DNA of 64,000 nucleotides. It comes from Syntrophales bacterium (GTDB taxonomy: Bacteria; Desulfobacterota; Syntrophia; Syntrophales; UBA2210). The position numbers were made by a program, and so were the translations under genes. The notes under the pieces were generated by a model, which searched no databases, had not been told where the DNA came from, and was given only the letters and a program-made list of their open reading frames with translations. Positions 7,307-64,000 of the stretch are shown here, one piece after another; the stretch's first letter is position 1, and every line of letters begins with the position of its first letter. The stretch is taken from the NCBI GenBank assembly GCA_963662405.2, contig CAXXKT010000002.1, positions 224,001 through 288,000 on the forward strand, read 5' to 3'.

Positions 7307-9190
7307 ATGAAACACAGAAGATCAGGAATTACCTGTTTTGCGGCCGCCCTCAGCGCATATGTCTTTTTGGTGGCGCCTGCCCCGGTGCCCGCTGTCACGT
7401 TGGAAGAAACCGTTGTAACGGCAAGCAGGATCGAGGAAGAAATTACCCATGCTCCCGACTCTGTCACCGTCATTACCGCAGAGGAAATGGAACGGAAAGG
7501 CCAACAAACCGTTATAGAGGCCCTCCGGGATGTCCCCGGGATCTTTATCCCCCAAAACGGCTCTTTCGGCTCTTCAAGCATCTATACGCGGGGAACCGGG
7601 AATGCCCACACGCTGATCATGATCGACGGCGTCCGTGTGGGCGACCCGATGGCGACAGATGGCAAGTTCAGCATTGCCGATCTGTCCACCGACAATATCG
7701 AAAAGATTGAAATCGTGCGAGGCGCCCAGAGCGTCCTGTACGGTTCCGATGCCATCGGCGGCGTGATCAATATCATCACAAAGAAAGGGAAAGGGAAACC
7801 ACAATTCACCCTGTCCTCGGAGGCCGGTTCCTTCGAAAGCTTCCGAGAGAAGATCGGTGTCAGTGGTTCGACGGACCGCATGAACTACGCCGCATCGGTT
7901 GAACGGTTCGACACCCGGGGCGTATCGAAGGCCGATGACGATCTGCCCGGTGTCAACGAGGAAGATTATTACAGTAATACCAGTATGTCCGCCCGGGTGA
8001 GCGGTGACCTCTCCGATACGATATCGATGGGTTTCACGGTGCGTCACAACGAATCGGAGCTGGATTATGATACCACCGACTGGATGACCGGTCGTGCAAC
8101 CGACGCCGACGAGGTACAGGAAACAACGATAACCAGCATGTCGACCCATTTCGATCAGGACCTGAACGACTGGTGGCAACACACGATCAAGCTCGGTATG
8201 ACGGATGTCGAACGCGAGTACACGACCGACGGCAGTTTTAACAATGCGTATAACGGGACAAGCCGCCAGGCTTCATGGCAACACAACTTTTTCATCGGCT
8301 CCGTCGATACGGTCAGCGCGGGGTTCGATTACGAGGAAGAAGAAGGGGATCTCCAGGATCCCACCTGGGGCAACATACCGAACAAATCCACAAACACGAA
8401 GAGCCTTTTTATCCAGAACAAATTGACCCCCGTACCGGGATTGTCCATTACCCTCGGGTATCGGGCGATCGATCATCAGACCTTCGGGAGCGAAGACACC
8501 TACAAGGGGGCGATCGCCTACGTCTTCGAAGAAACAGGGACGAAACTCCGGGGGAGCTACGGGACCGGCTTCCATGCACCGTCGCTCTACCAGTTGTATT
8601 CCAGCTATGGGAGCACATCACTGAAACCGGAGAAAAGCATCGGCTACGATATCGGTATTGAGCAACCGTTTCTGAACGACAGGGCCCGGGTATCGTTGAC
8701 CTATTTTAATAATGAGATCGATGAGTTGATCGATTTCAACATGACGACATGGACATACTATAATCTCGGCGAAGTCCGGACGGAAGGGTGGGAAACGACC
8801 CTGTCGGTCGCACCGGCGTCGTGGGTATCGATCAACATCGCCTATACCTATACCGAGGCGACGGATGAGACTCCGGGTAGTCCGAACAAGGGGAACACGC
8901 TCCTTTACCGCCCCGAACATGCGGGGAGCGCATCGGTGAATATCTGCCCTCTGGACGGCCTGAATGTCAATCTCAATGCGCAATACACAGGGAAGCGGTA
9001 CCGTGATGCGAGTAACGACAACGAAATGTCCGCTTACACCATCATCAACCTCGCGGCCTCTTACGAAGTGACCACGTGGCTCGAGATATTCGGCCGCATA
9101 GAGAATTTCACCGACAAAAACTATCAATCGGTCTATGACTACGGCGAACCCGGCATCGGTTGTTTCGGGGGCCTAAAGCTGACCTATTAA
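7307..9190 (+). CDS. btuB: TonB-dependent cobalamin receptor
   Basis: Signal peptide, TonB box (ETVVTASR), plug motif IEIVRGAQSVLYGSDAIGGVINIIT, C-terminal aromatic residue; under a cobalamin riboswitch. GGAGG RBS before ATG 7307. Confidence 0.9.
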   Translation: MKHRRSGITCFAAALSAYVFLVAPAPVPAVTLEETVVTASRIEEEITHAPDSVTVITAEEMERKGQQTVIEALRDVPGIFIPQNGSFGSSSIYTRGTGNAHTLIMIDGVRVGDPMATDGKFSIADLSTDNIEKIEIVRGAQSVLYGSDAIGGVINIITKKGKGKPQFTLSSEAGSFESFREKIGVSGSTDRMNYAASVERFDTRGVSKADDDLPGVNEEDYYSNTSMSARVSGDLSDTISMGFTVRHNESELDYDTTDWMTGRATDADEVQETTITSMSTHFDQDLNDWWQHTIKLGMTDVEREYTTDGSFNNAYNGTSRQASWQHNFFIGSVDTVSAGFDYEEEEGDLQDPTWGNIPNKSTNTKSLFIQNKLTPVPGLSITLGYRAIDHQTFGSEDTYKGAIAYVFEETGTKLRGSYGTGFHAPSLYQLYSSYGSTSLKPEKSIGYDIGIEQPFLNDRARVSLTYFNNEIDELIDFNMTTWTYYNLGEVRTEGWETTLSVAPASWVSINIAYTYTEATDETPGSPNKGNTLLYRPEHAGSASVNICPLDGLNVNLNAQYTGKRYRDASNDNEMSAYTIINLAASYEVTTWLEIFGRIENFTDKNYQSVYDYGEPGIGCFGGLKLTY

Positions 9191-9191
9191 T

Positions 9192-9238
9192 CGCTTCAGC
9201 GGGGGTGAGGACCCATCCCCTCCCCCCCCGCGGAAGCG
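9192..9238 (+). terminator. GC-rich stem-loop after btuB (mRNA stabiliser or partial terminator)
   Basis: CGCTTC.GCGGGGG ... CCCCCGC.GAAGCG inverted repeat with no strong U tail. Confidence 0.45.
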
Positions 9239-58829: not shown

Positions 58830-59132
58830 TCACTCACCGATAATCTTCACGAGGACCCGTTTTTTTCGCCTTCCATCGAACTCACCGTAGAAGATCTGTT
58901 CCCAAGGACCGAAATCGATCCGTCCCTCCGTGACGGCCGCGACGACCTCCCGCCCCATGACCTGGCGTTTCAGATGGGCATCTCCGTTGTCCTCCCCCGT
59001 CCGGTTGTGGAGATACCCCGAGACCGGCTCATGAGGGGCAAGCCCCTCCAGCCACCGCTCATAATCCTGGTGGAGCCCGGACTCGTCGTCGTTGATGAAG
59101 ACCGACGCCGTGATGTGCATGGCGTTTACCAA
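58830..59132 (-). pseudogene. yjbQ: YjbQ/UPF0047 protein, 5'-truncated by island insertion
   Basis: Begins mid-protein at [20 protein letters not shown] and contains NGDAHLK and [15 protein letters not shown]. Roughly 40 N-terminal residues are missing. Confidence 0.88.
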
Positions 59133-59250: not shown

Positions 59251-59517
59251 ATGGTAAGAACGAAGCAAAGTCAAGCTATCAGTGAAGAAGCGGTAGGGGA
59301 TACCCCCCCGGCACCGAAGATCAGGCGCAGGAAATTGAAGACCCTTGCTGATCTGTCCCGGTTCATGTCCAGTTTAATCAATGACACCCGGTGCGGTGAT
59401 GTTGATCCTGCATTGGCCAGTAAGTTGGCTTACATGACAAACATCCTCAAATCCATTATCAGCGAGGCTGATATCGAAACCCGGTTGGCGGCGTTAGAAA
59501 AAGAGATGCAAAAATAA
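59251..59517 (+). CDS. Hypothetical helical protein (phage/satellite-like)
   Basis: 88 aa; basic patch KIRRRK, helical core and C-terminal IETRLAALEKE. Confidence 0.7.
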   Translation: MVRTKQSQAISEEAVGDTPPAPKIRRRKLKTLADLSRFMSSLINDTRCGDVDPALASKLAYMTNILKSIISEADIETRLAALEKEMQK

Positions 59518-59535
59518 AACGAAAGGAGAAGATCA

Positions 59536-59883
59536 ATGTCAAAGAAAAGCAGAATCGAGGATCTGGAACAAAGGTATGAGAAAGATTCAGACGTGATCAC
59601 GGGTGTGCAGTGGTTTGGCCCAACTCAGATCATGGTTGACGGCGTGATGTATTCATCCCTTGAAGACATTCCGGAAGACCTGAGGGAGAAATATCCAAAC
59701 CTCGGCACCGAAGATCCCGAAAAAGCCGAAAGCCTTTATCAGCAACTTGCACCCTTCCGGGAGGCGTGCGCAAAATTTCCACGGTTTAAGGCAGAGCACC
59801 CGGCAGAGTTTGCCCGATCGCAGGAATTAACAGAGAAACATGAAACCTACGTAAAACAAAATCAAATAACAGAAGGAGAATGA
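59536..59883 (+). CDS. Hypothetical protein
   Basis: AAGGAG RBS; starts MSKKSRIEDLEQR. Confidence 0.75.
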   Translation: MSKKSRIEDLEQRYEKDSDVITGVQWFGPTQIMVDGVMYSSLEDIPEDLREKYPNLGTEDPEKAESLYQQLAPFREACAKFPRFKAEHPAEFARSQELTEKHETYVKQNQITEGE

Positions 59884-59886
59884 AAA

Positions 59887-60135
59887 ATGGACAAACAAAC
59901 AGTAATGGCATGGCAAACAGTTGACGTTGGCTTGAAGGACCTGATGCGCAATAATGATGAACTGGAATTACCCGAACTCAGGGCCAAAACTCGGCGATTA
60001 CGGCACCTGGGCAAATTCATTGAGCGGCTGGCCAAACGGGTCGACGAGCGAATCCGAGACGGAGTGAAACCGGGTGATATTGAGGAGTTGTTCATTCAGT
60101 ACACCACAGGCCGGGATGCAATTGACGGAAATTAA
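59887..60135 (+). CDS. Hypothetical protein
   Basis: AAGGAG RBS; closely follows the previous gene. Confidence 0.7.
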   Translation: MDKQTVMAWQTVDVGLKDLMRNNDELELPELRAKTRRLRHLGKFIERLAKRVDERIRDGVKPGDIEELFIQYTTGRDAIDGN

Positions 60136-60157
60136 ACAACGAGAGGAGAAAATACAA

Positions 60158-60814
60158 ATGGACCCATTGAGATTACAAGTTTATGAAAGTTTCTTAGAGA
60201 CAAAATCAGGTGATGAAAAGCTCGATGATTTGAATGCGAATTTCGGCGCGCACGTCCGGGGCATCCTTAATCAATTCGAAGAAACCAAACAGCGGATTGA
60301 TACGAAGGCTAACTTACTCACCCCGGCAGGACGGGAAGCGGAGCTGGCAAAAGCACGGGAAAAAGTGATTGAGGCCCTGAAGGAAATCGACGCAAAGGGT
60401 TCCTTTTCACCGGACATAAAAGAGATCAATAAAAAGTTTGATGTTGATGGAAATGCAACCGACATTCAAACGCTGATTACAGAAGGCCGCCAGCGCGAGA
60501 CAAGGGAATACTTGCGCTCCCTAAATGCGAAATCCGACTTGAAAGAAATGGAGATGATCAAGTTGAAGATTGCCGACGGGGATCCAACCATCGTGGGAGC
60601 GATAGCGAACGCACCTTACAAGGTAATGGATATTGACCCTGCAATACTGGAGGTCGGGATCGAGAAAATGCGATTACGCACAAACCCGCAGGCGGCGCAG
60701 CGGCTCGAGGTATTGACCACGGCACAAGATGTTCACGAAAACCTTATAACTTTCGCACGACAGGAAATCGGTGCAATTCCTGATGCGGAAAGCTCTTATT
60801 CCGTGAACGTCTGA
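60158..60814 (+). CDS. Hypothetical alpha-helical/coiled-coil protein (218 aa)
   Basis: AGGAG RBS before ATG 60158; charged helical composition. Confidence 0.75.
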   Translation: MDPLRLQVYESFLETKSGDEKLDDLNANFGAHVRGILNQFEETKQRIDTKANLLTPAGREAELAKAREKVIEALKEIDAKGSFSPDIKEINKKFDVDGNATDIQTLITEGRQRETREYLRSLNAKSDLKEMEMIKLKIADGDPTIVGAIANAPYKVMDIDPAILEVGIEKMRLRTNPQAAQRLEVLTTAQDVHENLITFARQEIGAIPDAESSYSVNV

Positions 60815-60824
60815 GCAAAGACAA

Positions 60825-60955
60825 GGCCGGGTCATCCGCTCCCCGGTCGCAAGGGTGTGCGGCTACAATCCCCGCATACCCGACATGGTGAGGGGTCAAC
60901 CGCTTTCCCCTCGCTCCGGGAGTCGGGGCAGGCTTCGGAAACTGTCCCGATTCCC
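60825..60955 (+). ncRNA. Candidate structured RNA: four consecutive hairpins
   Basis: Stems of 7, 10, 9 and 14 bp with 6 G-U pairs and no A-C mismatches; loops 1 and 3 are nearly identical. Confidence 0.6.
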
Positions 60956-60964
60956 TTATAATGA

Positions 60965-61005
60965 CCCCCGTGAGTAGGTGTTTTTCATTCTGTAAGGCGT
61001 TTAAA
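60965..61005 (+). repeat. Direct repeat copy 1
   Basis: 35/41 identical to 62741-62781, including TTCTGTAAGGCGTTTAAA exactly. Confidence 0.85.
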
Positions 61006-61052
61006 TCGAAAAGAGGTATAAAGGGTAGGGGAGAAAAGCAAAGGCTTTATTT

Positions 61053-61082
61053 TTGAAAAAAAGAGGTGTTCAGAAGTATAAT
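61053..61082 (+). promoter_or_regulatory. sigma70 promoter for the polymerase-like gene
   Basis: TTGAAA-18 nt-TATAAT. Confidence 0.65.
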
Positions 61083-61086
61083 AGAA

Positions 61087-61155
61087 TATCGGGGATAGGC
61101 AACAGCTGGCCGAATCGGAACAGGGAGTCCTCGCTTCTTGTTTCTTTCCCCGATA
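61087..61155 (+). promoter_or_regulatory. 5' leader stem-loop
   Basis: TATCGGGGA/TCCCCGATA perfect 9-bp stem, extendable to ~17 bp, starting at the predicted TSS. Confidence 0.55.
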
Positions 61156-61191
61156 ATTATATAAATCAAAATCGAGGGAGACGAGGACAAG

Positions 61192-62448
61192 ATGAAACGA
61201 AGGATTCCAAGGGGAGCCATCATCGCCATCGTGCGGAGAGATATTGAGCTTGAGAAACAAACTCCCGCGTGGTTACAGGAGGCGGTGGCATTCGATCATT
61301 CCCTGCGGTTGCTGCCGGATGAACTTCCTATTGCTCACAAATTGCTTTCGACATTACTGGAGGGCCAGCCGGGATATAAGCTCGATCAAAAGAAGTTCGA
61401 CGCAGAAGTCCTTATTTCAAATTTGCTTGATCACAAAAACAAACCCACGTCGATTTCCTTTGATTCCGGCTATTGGACGAAAAGCAGGTATAAACAAACG
61501 AGCGCTTACGTCTTAAAATTGGTGAATGAAATGCAAGAACAAGGAATGATCGAACTGCGGAAGGGTTATTTCACCACGGAAGAGAGCCGTCGAACACGGA
61601 TCTGGGCGACTGAAACACTCTTGGATTACTTTCCAAAACTTTCACCCCATGTTTTCAGGGAACCTGTTGAACTGGTTGAGCTGAGGGATGCAAAAGGGAA
61701 GCTCAAGGAGTATCGGGACACCGGGGAAACGCATCGTATCCGGGCGGTGTTGGAGCGGGTCAATGAGGTCAATGCAGAGGCACACATTCAATATCGAAAG
61801 TTCAGACTGGTTGCACACCTCCATGCAATTTTCAAAGAACGGTTCACCATGTACGGACGCCTTCACACAAGGGGTTATCGACACTATCAGGGCTTTGATG
61901 AAGATGAGCGAGCGGAAATTACTATCAATGGGGAACCTGTCACTGAACTTGATTTCAGTGGATTACACCCGCGCTTGCTCTATGCAAAAGAAGGAATCCA
62001 GTTTGATGAAGATCCATATTCCCTTGTCAACGAAAACCCGATTGCAAGGCCATTTTTAAAGCACGTACTTCTTTTTCTGCTCAATTCCACAGACGAAGTT
62101 TCCGCAGAGGCGGCGGCGAATTACTGGCTATTCCGAAACCCCGGCGAGCGTGGGAGATTACAGGAAATCGGTATTACACGAGCGCGACCCATTATCGACG
62201 CTTTCAAAGAAGCACACGCACTCATATCACATCATTTTTGCACCGGCAAAAGGACAGGACTTCGCATAATGAATCTTGATGCCAAAATTGCGTTGGATGT
62301 GGTTCATCATTTTGCGGAACAGAATATCCCGATACTGGCTGTGCACGATAGCTTTCTTGTTCAAAGCCGGTTTGAGAACCAACTGAGAAAAGTTATGAAT
62401 GATTCTTATTGCAAACATACCAAGGGTTTTCATTGTCCGATCAAGTAA
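61192..62448 (+). CDS. Compact superfamily-A (Pol I/T7 RNAP-like) polymerase-domain protein
   Basis: GRLH, motif A ELDFSGLHPRLL, motif B RPFLK and motif C VHDSF; wHTH-like N-terminal segment; GAGG RBS. Confidence 0.72.
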   Translation: MKRRIPRGAIIAIVRRDIELEKQTPAWLQEAVAFDHSLRLLPDELPIAHKLLSTLLEGQPGYKLDQKKFDAEVLISNLLDHKNKPTSISFDSGYWTKSRYKQTSAYVLKLVNEMQEQGMIELRKGYFTTEESRRTRIWATETLLDYFPKLSPHVFREPVELVELRDAKGKLKEYRDTGETHRIRAVLERVNEVNAEAHIQYRKFRLVAHLHAIFKERFTMYGRLHTRGYRHYQGFDEDERAEITINGEPVTELDFSGLHPRLLYAKEGIQFDEDPYSLVNENPIARPFLKHVLLFLLNSTDEVSAEAAANYWLFRNPGERGRLQEIGITRARPIIDAFKEAHALISHHFCTGKRTGLRIMNLDAKIALDVVHHFAEQNIPILAVHDSFLVQSRFENQLRKVMNDSYCKHTKGFHCPIK

Positions 62449-62510
62449 TAATAATTTTATGGACTTTTTTTAATAAAATTAAATTGTTACCCTCAATTCC
62501 TATAAGTTAA

Positions 62511-62596
62511 AATGAAATACAATAGGAAAGCAAGGATAAAATACAAGAATAGGATAGAATACAAGGATAGGAAAGGGTAAAGAATAGAAAGGGAAG
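62511..62596 (+). repeat. Purine-rich degenerate repeat tract
   Basis: 71/86 purines; AATACAA x3, CAAGGATA x2, ATAGGAAAG x2. Confidence 0.75.
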
Positions 62597-62740
62597 TTTC
62601 AATAGGTTCATTTTTGTCTAAAAAAATTACCCTCCCACTTCTTCGTTGAAAGACCATCCTTCCATCTCCTGAAGAATAGGGGGTTGCACCCCTCCAATAG
62701 CAAAACCCCTCCCGTCCCGGTCACGTAAGCGGCATAACAC

Positions 62741-62781
62741 CCCCCGTGAATCGGGGTATTGCGTTCTGTAAGGCGTTTAAA
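62741..62781 (+). repeat. Direct repeat copy 2
   Basis: See copy 1; both copies are followed 9-10 nt later by GGTATAA. Confidence 0.85.
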
Positions 62782-62986
62782 AGGGCAGGTTGGTATAATC
62801 CTATACCTTGGATATCCAAATCGGTTTAAGACGGCGAAAACGCAGGGAAAGGACACCATCCAAATCAGAACAAATCAGCATTTAATATATGGTTGTAAAA
62901 ATATGGTAGGAAAACAAAACATGAACATATCTTCCTGAAAGCGGTAAAAACCCGAGTGAAGAAATAATAATGGTTTCTTTCAGTAA

Positions 62987-63113
62987 TCATTACGGATTGT
63001 TCACCCGCCGGGAACCCAATGTTGACTTGCTTTTAAGAAACGTTGAAAGCTGAAGGCCCTATGTAAAAAGGCCGCCCCGGGTTCCCGGTCGAGTGTGAAA
63101 CAAATTGTTATAC
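62987..63113 (-). mobile_element. Integron attC site (long, degenerate R')
   Basis: R'' GTATAAC overlaps the HNH stop codon; arms TTCACACTCGACCGGGAACCC / GGGTTCCCGGCGGGTGAA with bulged bases; R' GTAATGA. Confidence 0.7.
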
Positions 63114-63794
63114 CAAGTTTTTGCATATTATTTCATTGTGGTAACTGACATATTCAGGAAGCACAGACCTGAAAAGGTCTTCATCAATTTTGACTGCGCC
63201 GTAATCAAATTTCACATGGCAATTCGGACACAAACATACAATATTTCCTAAATGGTCAGGCCCGTTGTGTGGAGACCCAAGGGGCTTTACATGGTGAGCC
63301 TCAGCGTACGGATTGTTATCAGGTAACATAATCCGGCTCCCACAAAGCTGGCACTTGTAATCATTGTCTGCTTTTACACGTCTCGCTAAAGCTGTATCTC
63401 TTAAAACACGATAAGTTGAAACAAGGTGACGTTCAATTAATTCAGGTTCATTATAATCTGATGCGATTGGAGTCGCCTGTTTTGATGTAAAAAACTGATT
63501 GACTCTGTCTTCTTCACGCTGTCTATAGCATGATTTTAAAATCCAGTTTTCTAATTCCTTTGAATTATCATTGATCCACACACTGATCATCCGATCAATT
63601 TCGTTCGAACTTAATGTGTATGGAGTATTTTTCCCAACAAGATGGGCATAAACGGTACGATAATCCACACCACGAGAAGCAACATGAGAAACCGCTTTTC
63701 TTCTCCAAAAACTTGCAGATCTATTTGGATTCTGTTTTGAAAAATCGCTAATAAGATCTAATACCTCTAAAATGTCCGCAATTCTTTGACTCAT
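63108..63794 (-). CDS. HNH endonuclease (gene cassette)
   Basis: CQLC..EAHHVKPLG..GPD..NIVCLCPNCH motifs; low GC. Confidence 0.9.
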   Translation of the reverse strand: MSQRIADILEVLDLISDFSKQNPNRSASFWRRKAVSHVASRGVDYRTVYAHLVGKNTPYTLSSNEIDRMISVWINDNSKELENWILKSCYRQREEDRVNQFFTSKQATPIASDYNEPELIERHLVSTYRVLRDTALARRVKADNDYKCQLCGSRIMLPDNNPYAEAHHVKPLGSPHNGPDHLGNIVCLCPNCHVKFDYGAVKIDEDLFRSVLPEYVSYHNEIICKNLV

Positions 63795-63812
63795 GTCCTA
63801 TGACCTTTGGTG

Positions 63813-63868
63813 GTATAATGCGGCGGATGACCTGCCCCGCAGGGGACAAGTCCATCCGCTGGTTCGGG
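63813..63868 (-). mobile_element. Integron attC site (56 bp)
   Basis: Minus strand CCCGAAC-ca-GCGGATG(G)ACTTGTCCC-ctgc-GGGGCAGGTCATCCGC-cgc-ATTATAC, with one extrahelical base in L''. Confidence 0.72.
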
Positions 63869-64000
63869 AGGCGCTGCGCGCCGAGCGAACCAGCTCAGGG
63901 CAGCCGCCGCATGTTCAGGGGGTGTGGAGCGGTCTTATCGCGGAGCGCCCCCTGAACAGTGTTTATATTGTTTCTGTATAAAAACCAAACATAGCTGAAA

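Follow-up and report, generated by a model that had tools for sequence, protein, structure and literature searches.

The stretch of 64,000 nucleotides analysed here (the window) carries an integrated island in which the gene of a 418-aa family-A polymerase, together with its leader and a site on its 3' side, appears on balance to form the module that starts replication of a small integrative element. We propose, with moderate confidence, that the polymerase is a one-protein initiator-primase, which binds a conserved motif behind its own gene and synthesises a short primer, probably of RNA, over the adjoining tract. Priming from the adjacent tract was one of several functions considered in the initial annotation, and we agree that it is the likeliest predicted one. 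Leader, motif and C-poor tract are conserved together with the gene in homologs of several phyla. The features, in window numbering, are the following:

59127-59130, no strand: left attachment core TTAC, the point where the island splits yjbQ
59251-60814, plus strand: four small ORFs (88, 115, 82 and 218 aa) without family assignment
60825-60955, plus strand: cluster of four hairpins, real and local, not conserved with the polymerase
60958-61005, plus strand: DR1, a direct repeat local to this locus and not characteristic of the family
61053-61082, plus strand: sigma-70-like promoter TTGAAA-18-TATAAT (11/12 matches), preceding the leader
61087-61155, plus strand: three-way-junction leader RNA with closing stem, conserved UAGG, a hairpin and a hairpin with the antisense loop
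61127-61134, plus strand: antisense loop of the leader, in the second hairpin
61173-61188, plus strand: two sites, overlapping the ribosome-binding region, that the leader loop targets
61192-62448, plus strand: 418-aa polymerase ORF, winged helix (residues 41-152) and family-A palm/fingers (160-418), related to divPolA2
62497-62516, plus strand: conserved motif, core AGTTA then purines, where the enzyme is proposed to bind and start
62511-62596, plus strand: C-poor, purine-rich, unstructured tract, proposed primer or R-loop zone
62607-62618: T-run 3' of the tract
62734-62781, plus strand: DR2, retained in the nearest relatives alone (L138-L140)
63108-63794, minus strand: HNH nuclease, cargo, resembling type IV methyl-directed restriction enzymes
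67172-67175 (window-equivalent of L001 9172-9175): right attachment core

The gene yjbQ is split by an 8,041-bp serine-recombinase island (window 59131 to ~67171; GC 44.5% versus 53.6%), which encodes a large serine recombinase. The interruption of yjbQ, already noticed in the initial annotation, is borne out by the location of both gene halves, the 3' part (UPF0047) at 58830-59132 and the 5' part at L001 9173-9297, and by an uninterrupted yjbQ in 3/3 aligned loci of the same genus. The joints (1126 to 9185-9195) are present in contigs of other organisms; a joint of the excised circle was absent from the contigs of source runs X1 and X3, contigs being an assembly form that drops rare variants. 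The element is probably a small integrative, satellite-like one. No canonical replication module had been seen in the part of the element first described, and when the search was extended to the whole island none of its 9 ORFs gave a Pfam, PHROG or NCBIfam match to a helicase, primase, Rep or RT; the annotation of these ORFs likewise contains no second polymerase in the 8 kb. The four small ORFs, together with clusters c3 and c4 of relatives, could be unrecognised replication proteins. Packaging genes (TerS, head proteins) found no match in the yjbQ island itself; among relatives, TerS occurs in L011 (E 1e-38) and L038, a head protease in L105 and L143, and a major capsid protein in L031. By eye and without a database match, the 88-aa ORF presumably resembles the helical part of a small terminase.

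The same scarcity of replication genes is found around the homologs. No recognisable Rep, primase or helicase is present in four relatives lying between yjbQ halves (L102, L011, L143, L137), and the 140 neighbours counted at 54 distant loci, of which 27 have a recombinase, include none either; resolvases and integrases occur in the neighbourhood of polymerase loci. In L022 and L024 a zinc-finger and AAA_25 protein without a primase catalytic domain is encoded directly upstream of the polymerase, and in L021 a DnaB gene abuts it, the adjacent helicases again having no primase catalytic domain. PICI-like satellites, in contrast, carry pri-rep genes before the origin, and these are absent from the yjbQ island and the relatives examined.

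The ORF first recognised by its polymerase motifs is indeed an enzyme of the family-A fold. The structure model (pLDDT 94; predicted size 48 kDa) comprises a winged helix at residues 41-152, matching winged-helix structures at Z 5-6.4, a single long helix at 178-196, and then palm and fingers; the 3' exonuclease is absent and the thumb, read from secondary structure only, is vestigial at most. Fold comparison places it near PolA and T7-type RNA polymerases alike, namely apicoplast PolA (Z 14.2, rmsd 3.9, 228 aligned), yeast mitochondrial RNAP (Z 13.6, rmsd 3.5, 224 aligned) and T7 RNAP (Z 13.0, rmsd 7.8, 335 aligned). The protein has no Pfam, NCBIfam or PADLOC match and no PDB sequence match; comparison with T7 RNAP gave no significant sequence match, and that with N4 RNAP2 a weak one (E 0.006). 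Fused long forms were absent among proteins of 1,032-2,945 aa, the range covered, which is weak evidence.

The catalytic aspartates D254 (119/119) and D386 (117/119) are conserved in the family alignment, as are K290 (119/119), R286 (114/119) and the GR motif G222-R223. With the T7-like RNAPs (T7, N4 RNAPII, mitochondrial) the enzyme shares the fold, the GR motif, RxxxK, a conserved Asp three residues past the H784 position, and a motif C that reads HDSF rather than HDE (H385 and S387 each 118/119). It differs from them in its half size, in the winged helix that stands for the N-terminal domain, in a motif A (DFSGLH) that follows the DNA-polymerase register of T7 DNAP and not DxxxSG, and in the lack of the motif-B tyrosine, whose position is N298 in 115/119; these last two differences leave the sugar preference uncertain. 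According to the available text of PMC7581432, E710 and F762 exclude ribonucleotides in Pol I and CCPol. By motif register, E710 aligns with H259 (102/119) and F762 with L294, a position occupied by L, M, I or Q and, among its five commonest residues, never by an aromatic one.

These substitutions bear on the proposal that the enzyme is a primer- or partner-dependent DNA polymerase, CCPol-like or repair-like, needing a host or helper-phage factor, with the motif bound by some other protein. Such a role would fit the Foldseek top matches, which are DNA polymerases, the register of motif A, the requirement of CCPol for MP in priming, and the repair function suggested for divPolA2 in the available text of PMC11348598. 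The steric-gate Glu and the motif-B aromatic are gone, however, no OB-fold or helicase gene is conserved near the polymerase, and the motif described below follows the polymerase clade (32/53 rows inside, 2/68 outside) while the neighbouring genes change, and we regard this proposal as quite improbable.

The initial annotation could not match the arrangement to a named system. This no longer holds for the protein, which belongs with divPolA2 (Yutin et al. 2024, PMC11348598; PHROG 4756), a group reported in the available text only from lytic phages and without known function; profile A5 matches its representative AUR84708 at E 6e-45 (hhalign probability 98.2), with ~24% identity to the 418-aa protein over the catalytic part, and full-length structural matches in BFVD reach TM 0.53-0.69. 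Homology extends to barbavirus proteins. Both have an active palm, no exonuclease, no canonical thumb and an N-terminal globular domain, which the accessible part of the published account describes as 'without detectable similarity' and which is here a winged helix. That account, as far as available, gives divPolA2 no cis elements, whereas a leader RNA, a 3' motif and a tract are present here; divPolA2 is placed there in a lytic phage that has a regular DNA polymerase as well, instead of in an 8-kb integrative island. For the module as a whole the statement stands, since it was not found described in a literature search whose coverage omits most subscription journals, while the supplements of Iyer 2008 and Yutin 2024 may list members; the name 'divPolA2' was confined, in the searched literature, to the Yutin paper and the corresponding preprint.

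Two further systems are close in parts. The CCPol-MP and PolA-SSB primases of SCCmec (PMC7581432, available text; 10.1101/2022.12.02.518924) share the exonuclease-less family-A core, the large-serine-recombinase element, the origin downstream of the replication genes and the priming role, which is here a predicted one. CCPol is nevertheless near Pol I and retains E710/F762; the primers it makes are DNA, and it depends on an OB-fold partner and a D5-type helicase. In the 418-aa protein a winged helix is fused to the core, the equivalents of E710/F762 are lost and no partner genes are conserved; where Pol is followed by OB-fold SSB and helicase genes, the gene here has behind it 660 nt of non-coding DNA and then the antisense HNH gene. 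TV-Pol, a predicted primase-polymerase (Iyer, Abhiman and Aravind 2008, PMC2579912), resembles it in the minimal family-A core, the mobile elements and the adjacent resolvases and integrases, but has a coiled-coil thumb and a D5 helicase or all-helical N-domain, unlike the alpha/beta winged helix here, which is accompanied by no D5 gene. The one TV-Pol carrier genome searched, Ma-LMM01, gave no match to the polymerase profile.

Upstream of the gene, the TATAAT promoter and the leader stem had been correctly recognised. Promoter-like sites number 5 against 3.2 expected, hence there is no excess in number. The stem by itself is modest (z -1.9, 13/200 shuffles equally stable); the leader RNA is strongly backed by homologs, being conserved with the polymerase gene across several phyla. 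Its loop covaries with the sites at the ribosome-binding region (cognate run 7.5 nt versus 4.8; 0/20,000 permutations), and the loop-target duplex is computed at -20.1 kcal/mol. Such covariation with its own ribosome-binding region is the mark of a cis-regulator, and by the sequence comparison this RNA is a leader of cis-regulatory type, with a loop predicted to pair with that region. No Rfam model matches it, and the leader is a new RNA family whichever function the enzyme has. It recalls the antisense RNAs P4 CI, which controls the P4 replication genes (PMC4825925, available text), and P1 C4, in that a leader-borne RNA would pair with complementary sites and silence the genes behind; it differs in having no Rfam match and a single loop whose downstream sites, at the ribosome-binding region, number two at most.

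The four hairpins further upstream had been seen as part of the module, with their RNA as a possible template or primer in a retron/DRT-like ncRNA-polymerase pair, possibly with a defence function, and the direct repeats as the bounds of the unit. Both elements exist. The hairpins fold at -73.7 kcal/mol (z -5.2) with 0/200 shuffles as stable, and DR1 and DR2 (48 nt, 81% identical, 1,776 nt apart) align with a score of 52, where non-cognate flank pairs reach 36 at most. The gene is indeed preceded by a structured RNA, an RT gene is found near the polymerase in one distant locus (L056), and defence-like cargo is frequent in islands with the polymerase. A strong hairpin is nonetheless missing from the corresponding upstream zone in 33/36 close loci, nhmmer found no homolog of the four-hairpin element, and a flanking direct repeat exceeds the 99th percentile in just 2/32 loci, the second one being merely AT-rich. 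Hairpins and repeats were thus rejected as family features, which leaves the retron/DRT analogy unsupported, and since the conserved RNA is predicted to regulate its own gene, the analogy loses its RNA as well. The enzyme has a family-A fold and no reverse-transcriptase domain, PADLOC left it unmatched in 5/5 members tested, and the island has no RT match. We therefore consider a pair of this kind very improbable.

Directly before the tract, at 62497-62516, lies a motif missing from the earlier feature list. Located ~45 nt past the stop codon, it is found by a PWM in 35/47 close loci and not detected in 12/47; a first pattern, picked after viewing the sequences, had been present in 38/47 against 9.8 in shuffles. 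With a leave-one-out PWM the own site is still the top of the 3.8-Mb host genome (18.8 versus 15.1), whereas in distant homologs the motif is not above chance (12/96 versus 11.0). The tract behind it had been described as purine-rich repeats; the purine richness holds (83% purine, 4 C in 86 nt, with 12 equally purine-rich windows among 7.59 million overlapping ones on both strands of the genome), while the supposed repeat array is low-complexity sequence. The tract is co-conserved with the gene as C depletion, close loci having C 6.9% and G 27%, where 422 control windows have 20% and 22%. Hypermutability of the tract was considered and not borne out; it diverges faster than the motif, yet so does the DNA behind it. 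An inverted motif and tract in L119 was set aside as proof of orientation independence because an adjoining partial second gene end suggests rearrangement.

The position of the motif directly downstream of the replication gene, mostly as one strong copy per locus, is like that of SaPI/SCC origins and favours the initiator-primase. Its layout, AT-rich and then a purine start, is T7-promoter-like. The enzyme might be a miniature single-subunit RNA polymerase, an option raised for divPolA2 by Yutin 2024 (PMC11348598, available text), with the motif as promoter, the tract as initially transcribed leader and the downstream packaging and recombinase genes as targets. The RNAP-type motif C, the lost sugar-gate residues, the tied DNAP and RNAP fold matches and a next ORF on the same strand in 25/32 loci agree with this, and it would account for the lytic-phage copies. 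However, there is mostly a single strong site per locus where T7 has many promoters, the next gene is antisense in the yjbQ island and likewise in 7/32 loci, and the single long helix between winged helix and palm makes processive elongation doubtful. The elements would moreover be left without an initiator, and the helicase neighbours without primase domains unexplained. We consider it unlikely, if the most probable of the alternatives.

Thus, we return to the initiator-primase, for which the following course may be envisaged. In the integrated state the host RNA polymerase would transcribe the leader, whose loop would pair with the ribosome-binding region and keep the enzyme off, as CI RNA silences the P4 replication genes. 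After excision the enzyme may bind the downstream motif through its winged helix, open the AT-rich DNA and begin synthesis de novo on the purines that follow the motif. The short product across the C-poor tract, RNA being about twice as likely as DNA, would stay hybridised and prime the host replication proteins. A single 48-kDa enzyme performing initiation and priming would replace the primase and Rep pair of satellite elements. Priming of this kind is known from T7, whose own RNAP primes the phage origin.

The distribution of the family bears on this proposal. The 418-aa protein has homologs in 8,164 clusters at 50% identity; a scan of genome contigs found none with a single protein query and succeeded with an alignment query. 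Homologs occur in 284 phage records, including 115 of Rheinheimera phages, and in 3 of 72,556 plasmid records, all large replicons. Judged from these sequences, the lytic-phage homologs, in described groups large phages with their own replicative polymerase, would speak against an initiator-primase, and the near absence from plasmids is unexpected of an initiator that suffices by itself. No tract lies behind any of the five inspected phage genes. A link between the ICP1 gene and the phage origin was not supported, the gene lying near 52 kb and the origin being reported near 60 kb, in different isolates.

divPolA2 was named in 2024 without a function, and at this locus a binding site, a starting point and a zone for the product can be predicted, which makes substrate and function testable using a single small protein and a template of 150 bp. 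The locus also bears on how family-A polymerases gave rise to RNA polymerases with de novo initiation. If our proposal is true, thousands of seemingly replication-less small islands would carry a new replicon type. We suggest only tentatively that small integrative elements of this sort make up a large class not described before, in which a 48-kDa half-size T7-type RNAP serves as initiator and primase at its own site, with no Rep, no DnaG/AEP primase, usually no helicase, and control by a new antisense leader RNA; such an enzyme would represent a novel kind of replication initiator, standing between the DNA polymerases of family A and the single-subunit RNA polymerases. If the enzyme is instead a promoter-specific RNA polymerase, its size of about half that of T7 RNAP would be of interest for an orthogonal tool. 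As a minor observation on the cargo, attC-like palindromes can be seen by eye on both sides of the HNH gene.

The island that interrupts yjbQ is 8,041 bp long (44.5% GC) and has the crossover core TTAC; the 5′ part of yjbQ lies at its far end, beyond the window. In same-genus genomes yjbQ is intact at 3/3 aligned loci, and a search of related genomes recovered the polymerase gene in 0/60. The module drawn in the initial annotation was recovered in all its parts, including a sigma-70-like promoter and the leader stem:

60825..60955, cluster of four hairpins (z -5.2 in shuffle comparison)
60958..61005 and 62734..62781, direct repeats DR1 and DR2 (48 nt, 81% identity)
61087..61155, leader, a three-way-junction RNA
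61192..62448, + strand, polymerase ORF of 418 aa
62497..62516, 3′ motif
62511..62596, C-poor tract (83% purine)

The right part of the island carries, in order, an antisense HNH gene, a small serine resolvase, a 59-aa regulator-like ORF and a large serine recombinase. The absence of a canonical replication module, first noted for the part within the window, extends to the whole island, as 9/9 ORFs lack a Rep, primase, helicase or RT family match. No excised-circle joint was seen in the contigs of the source runs, in which rare forms are dropped. The HNH gene is placed between attC-like palindromes (62990-63105 and 63810-63925) common to many unrelated contigs, and resembles an integron-type cassette taken along as cargo. 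Just outside the island, an 80-nt element (source locus L001, 9412-9492) recurs 11 times elsewhere in the host genome at 74% identity.

The polymerase has no Pfam match and no PDB sequence match. It matches PHROG 4756 (E 2e-60), to which no function is assigned there, and weakly two RNA-polymerase PHROGs (E 0.03 and 0.09); its profile retrieved 8,164 clusters at 50% identity (E up to 0.001). The predicted structure (pLDDT 94) consists of a winged-helix domain (41-152) and a family-A palm/fingers core (160-418), whose catalytic residues are nearly invariant across 119 diverse family members. Structural similarity ties DNA and RNA polymerases (Z 14.2, 13.6 and 13.0), and Foldseek ranks DNA polymerases first. 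Set against T7 RNAP and T7 DNAP by motif register rather than superposition, motif A follows the DNAP register but His replaces the steric-gate Glu, motif B is aliphatic where DNAPs have an aromatic residue and carries Asn at the conserved Tyr, and motif C (HDSF) is RNAP-like. Pairwise profile comparison with the single T7 proteins (RNAP, DNAP) was not significant, and that with N4 RNAP2 gave E 0.006. Two of five phage records contained a profile match (AUR84708, E 6e-45; ICP1 ORF100, E 2e-50), the T7, N4 and Ma-LMM01 records yielding none. ICP1 ORF100 (L182 3377-5044) is a family member with a longer N-terminus; this well-studied phage reportedly lacks an obvious RNA polymerase. By sequence and fold the protein belongs to divPolA2, a phage family-A polymerase group, and so has a name. 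The arrangement as a whole, which the initial annotation could not match to a named system, did not turn up in literature searches, and neither did its leader or 3′ site.

We fetched 180 loci and required a stop codon plus 200 nt of flank, which kept 161/181 with the source locus included; removal of near-duplicates left 47 close and 96 distant loci. A by-eye pattern of the 3′ motif occurs between -30 and +90 of the stop in 38/47 close loci (shuffle mean 9.8, maximum 20; reverse strand 10) and at chance level, 12/96, in distant loci. A position matrix (core AGTTA) finds it in 35/47 close loci, mostly 30-58 nt past the stop, with one strong site in most loci and a second in a few; the window's own site is the best in the host genome even when excluded from training. 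Mean base content over the 70 nt 3′ of the motif is 6.9% for C and 27% for G, and at most 5% C is found in 15/35 loci versus 3/422 control windows. Judged from these sequences, the tract is free in sequence and fixed in composition. In a protein tree of 121 rows, from which fragments and frameshifted genes were excluded, our own counts place the motif in 32/53 rows of one clade (SH-aLRT 94, several phyla) versus 2/68 outside, and the C-poor tract in 35/53 versus 5/68, so that the proposed co-conservation of tract and gene was borne out. Another motif, a post hoc pattern, occupies the same place in 7/96 distant loci, mostly alphaproteobacterial (L035, L043, L048, L050, L057, L063, L079; 19-72 nt past the stop; shuffle mean 0.24), a hint that site and enzyme may change together. 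In L083 and L086 the bias behind the stop codon is reversed, the coding strand being rich in pyrimidines, which suggests that the site points the other way in another clade.

The leader stem is likewise co-conserved with the polymerase, in 19/46 close loci by a strict script. A covariance model gave 41 matches (E up to 0.02) in 100 sources, the 20 training sequences and duplicates included, and all but about three lie directly 5′ of the polymerase; no Rfam family matches. Both-side changes occur in 7/7 pairs of the closing stem, where 82% of cells pair, more than in slid controls, in an alignment fitted to the structure. At the ribosome-binding region lie one or two sites complementary to the loop of the second hairpin, and the loop covaries with these targets (15 loci, four near-duplicates dropped; cognate run 7.5 nt vs 4.8; 0/20,000 permutations). 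Extra leader copies precede other genes of the same elements (L002 464-586, L003 8064-8175). The hairpin cluster and flanking repeats did not prove to be module features: 33/36 loci have no such cluster, the repeats are present in only 2/32, and DR2 is kept only in L138-L140. A retron/DRT-like unit, the analogy first offered, is very improbable.

On the basis of the fold, the catalytic residues, the co-conservation and the lack of recognisable replication genes, the best-supported reading, slightly more likely than not, is that the polymerase acts as an initiator-primase whose origin directly follows its gene. In this mechanism the leader would silence the polymerase in the integrated state; the winged helix would bind the 3′ site, the polymerase would start de novo and make RNA, the hybrid would persist across the tract, and the primer would be handed over to host proteins. 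Hybrids of purine-rich RNA are stable, and ColE1 and mitochondrial origins are primed by a persistent RNA hybrid. Against the initiator-primase we count homologs in 284 phage records, no tract behind the five phage genes inspected, and a homolog in only 3/72,556 plasmid records. The phages are large ones, which in the groups described also have a regular polymerase (Yutin 2024, PMC11348598). The next gene is co-oriented in 25/32 loci, which fits the 3′ motif as a promoter and the polymerase as a mini RNA polymerase for downstream genes, an unlikely alternative; a partner-dependent or repair DNA polymerase seems a little less likely still. Given the tract-less phage homologs, the rare plasmids and the co-oriented genes, the family may serve different roles, and replication of the element may depend on a helper.

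T7 primes its origin with its own RNAP (10.1101/639039), SaPI/SCC origins sit downstream of the rep gene and CCPol-MP acts in priming (PMC7581432; Rice preprint), and P4 CI RNA is a precedent for leader control of replication genes (PMC4825925); C4 RNA has an entry in a table of PMC2864571. On the priming reading CCPol-MP and the predicted TV-Pols (PMC2579912) would work similarly, but the polymerase fails defining tests of each, and by motif A, motif B and size it does not qualify as a T7-type RNAP. The accessible text of the PolA reclassification (PMC10201439) mentions neither 'winged' nor TV-Pol. We take the module for a probable family-A priming module in a form not described before; that it is a replication initiator of a new, one-protein type is possible but less likely than not.

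Among 36 longer loci (about 150/459 neighbour ORFs scanned) we found serine recombinases at 18, tyrosine recombinases at 10 and an XRE regulator at 13; two families without assignment occur at 11 (c3) and 10 (c4). Four relatives are complete 7-10 kb elements between yjbQ halves, the right end of that in L137 being placed by its recombinase match alone, and none has a Rep, primase or helicase match. Of 54 distant loci, 27 have a recombinase among their three nearest large ORFs and none has a primase, helicase or Rep there. Packaging genes (TerS, portal, head protease, capsid) occur in some related loci, so that the island probably lives as a satellite. A helicase gene lies directly upstream of the polymerase in L021, L022 and L024. 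In L022 (8512-9741) and L024 (8084-9307) a primase-type zinc finger is joined to an AAA_25 helicase by ~35 residues, a stretch that leaves no room for the catalytic domain of a primase. In L021 a DnaB-type gene abuts the polymerase; from this gene order, the polymerase appears to stand in the place of the missing primase.

Large serine recombinases of this family repeatedly target yjbQ across taxa (left ends in L102, L103, L011, L152, L143, L137). Some elements carry their own intact yjbQ beside the recombinase (L011 6507-6696, L004 12377-12790, L007 12931-13275), which replaces the copy they disrupt. The c4 product (L102 4285-5058 and nine homologs), a zinc-finger and helix-turn-helix protein encoded directly 3′ of the tract in 10/36 loci, resembles small terminases by eye, the best terminase match reaching only E 0.05. 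A reverse-transcriptase gene adjoins a distant homolog at L056 11607-13178, a single case in 54 loci. The c3 family (L143 5841-6629 and ten homologs; 240-310 aa) lies 5′ of the polymerase and often follows a head-protease gene.
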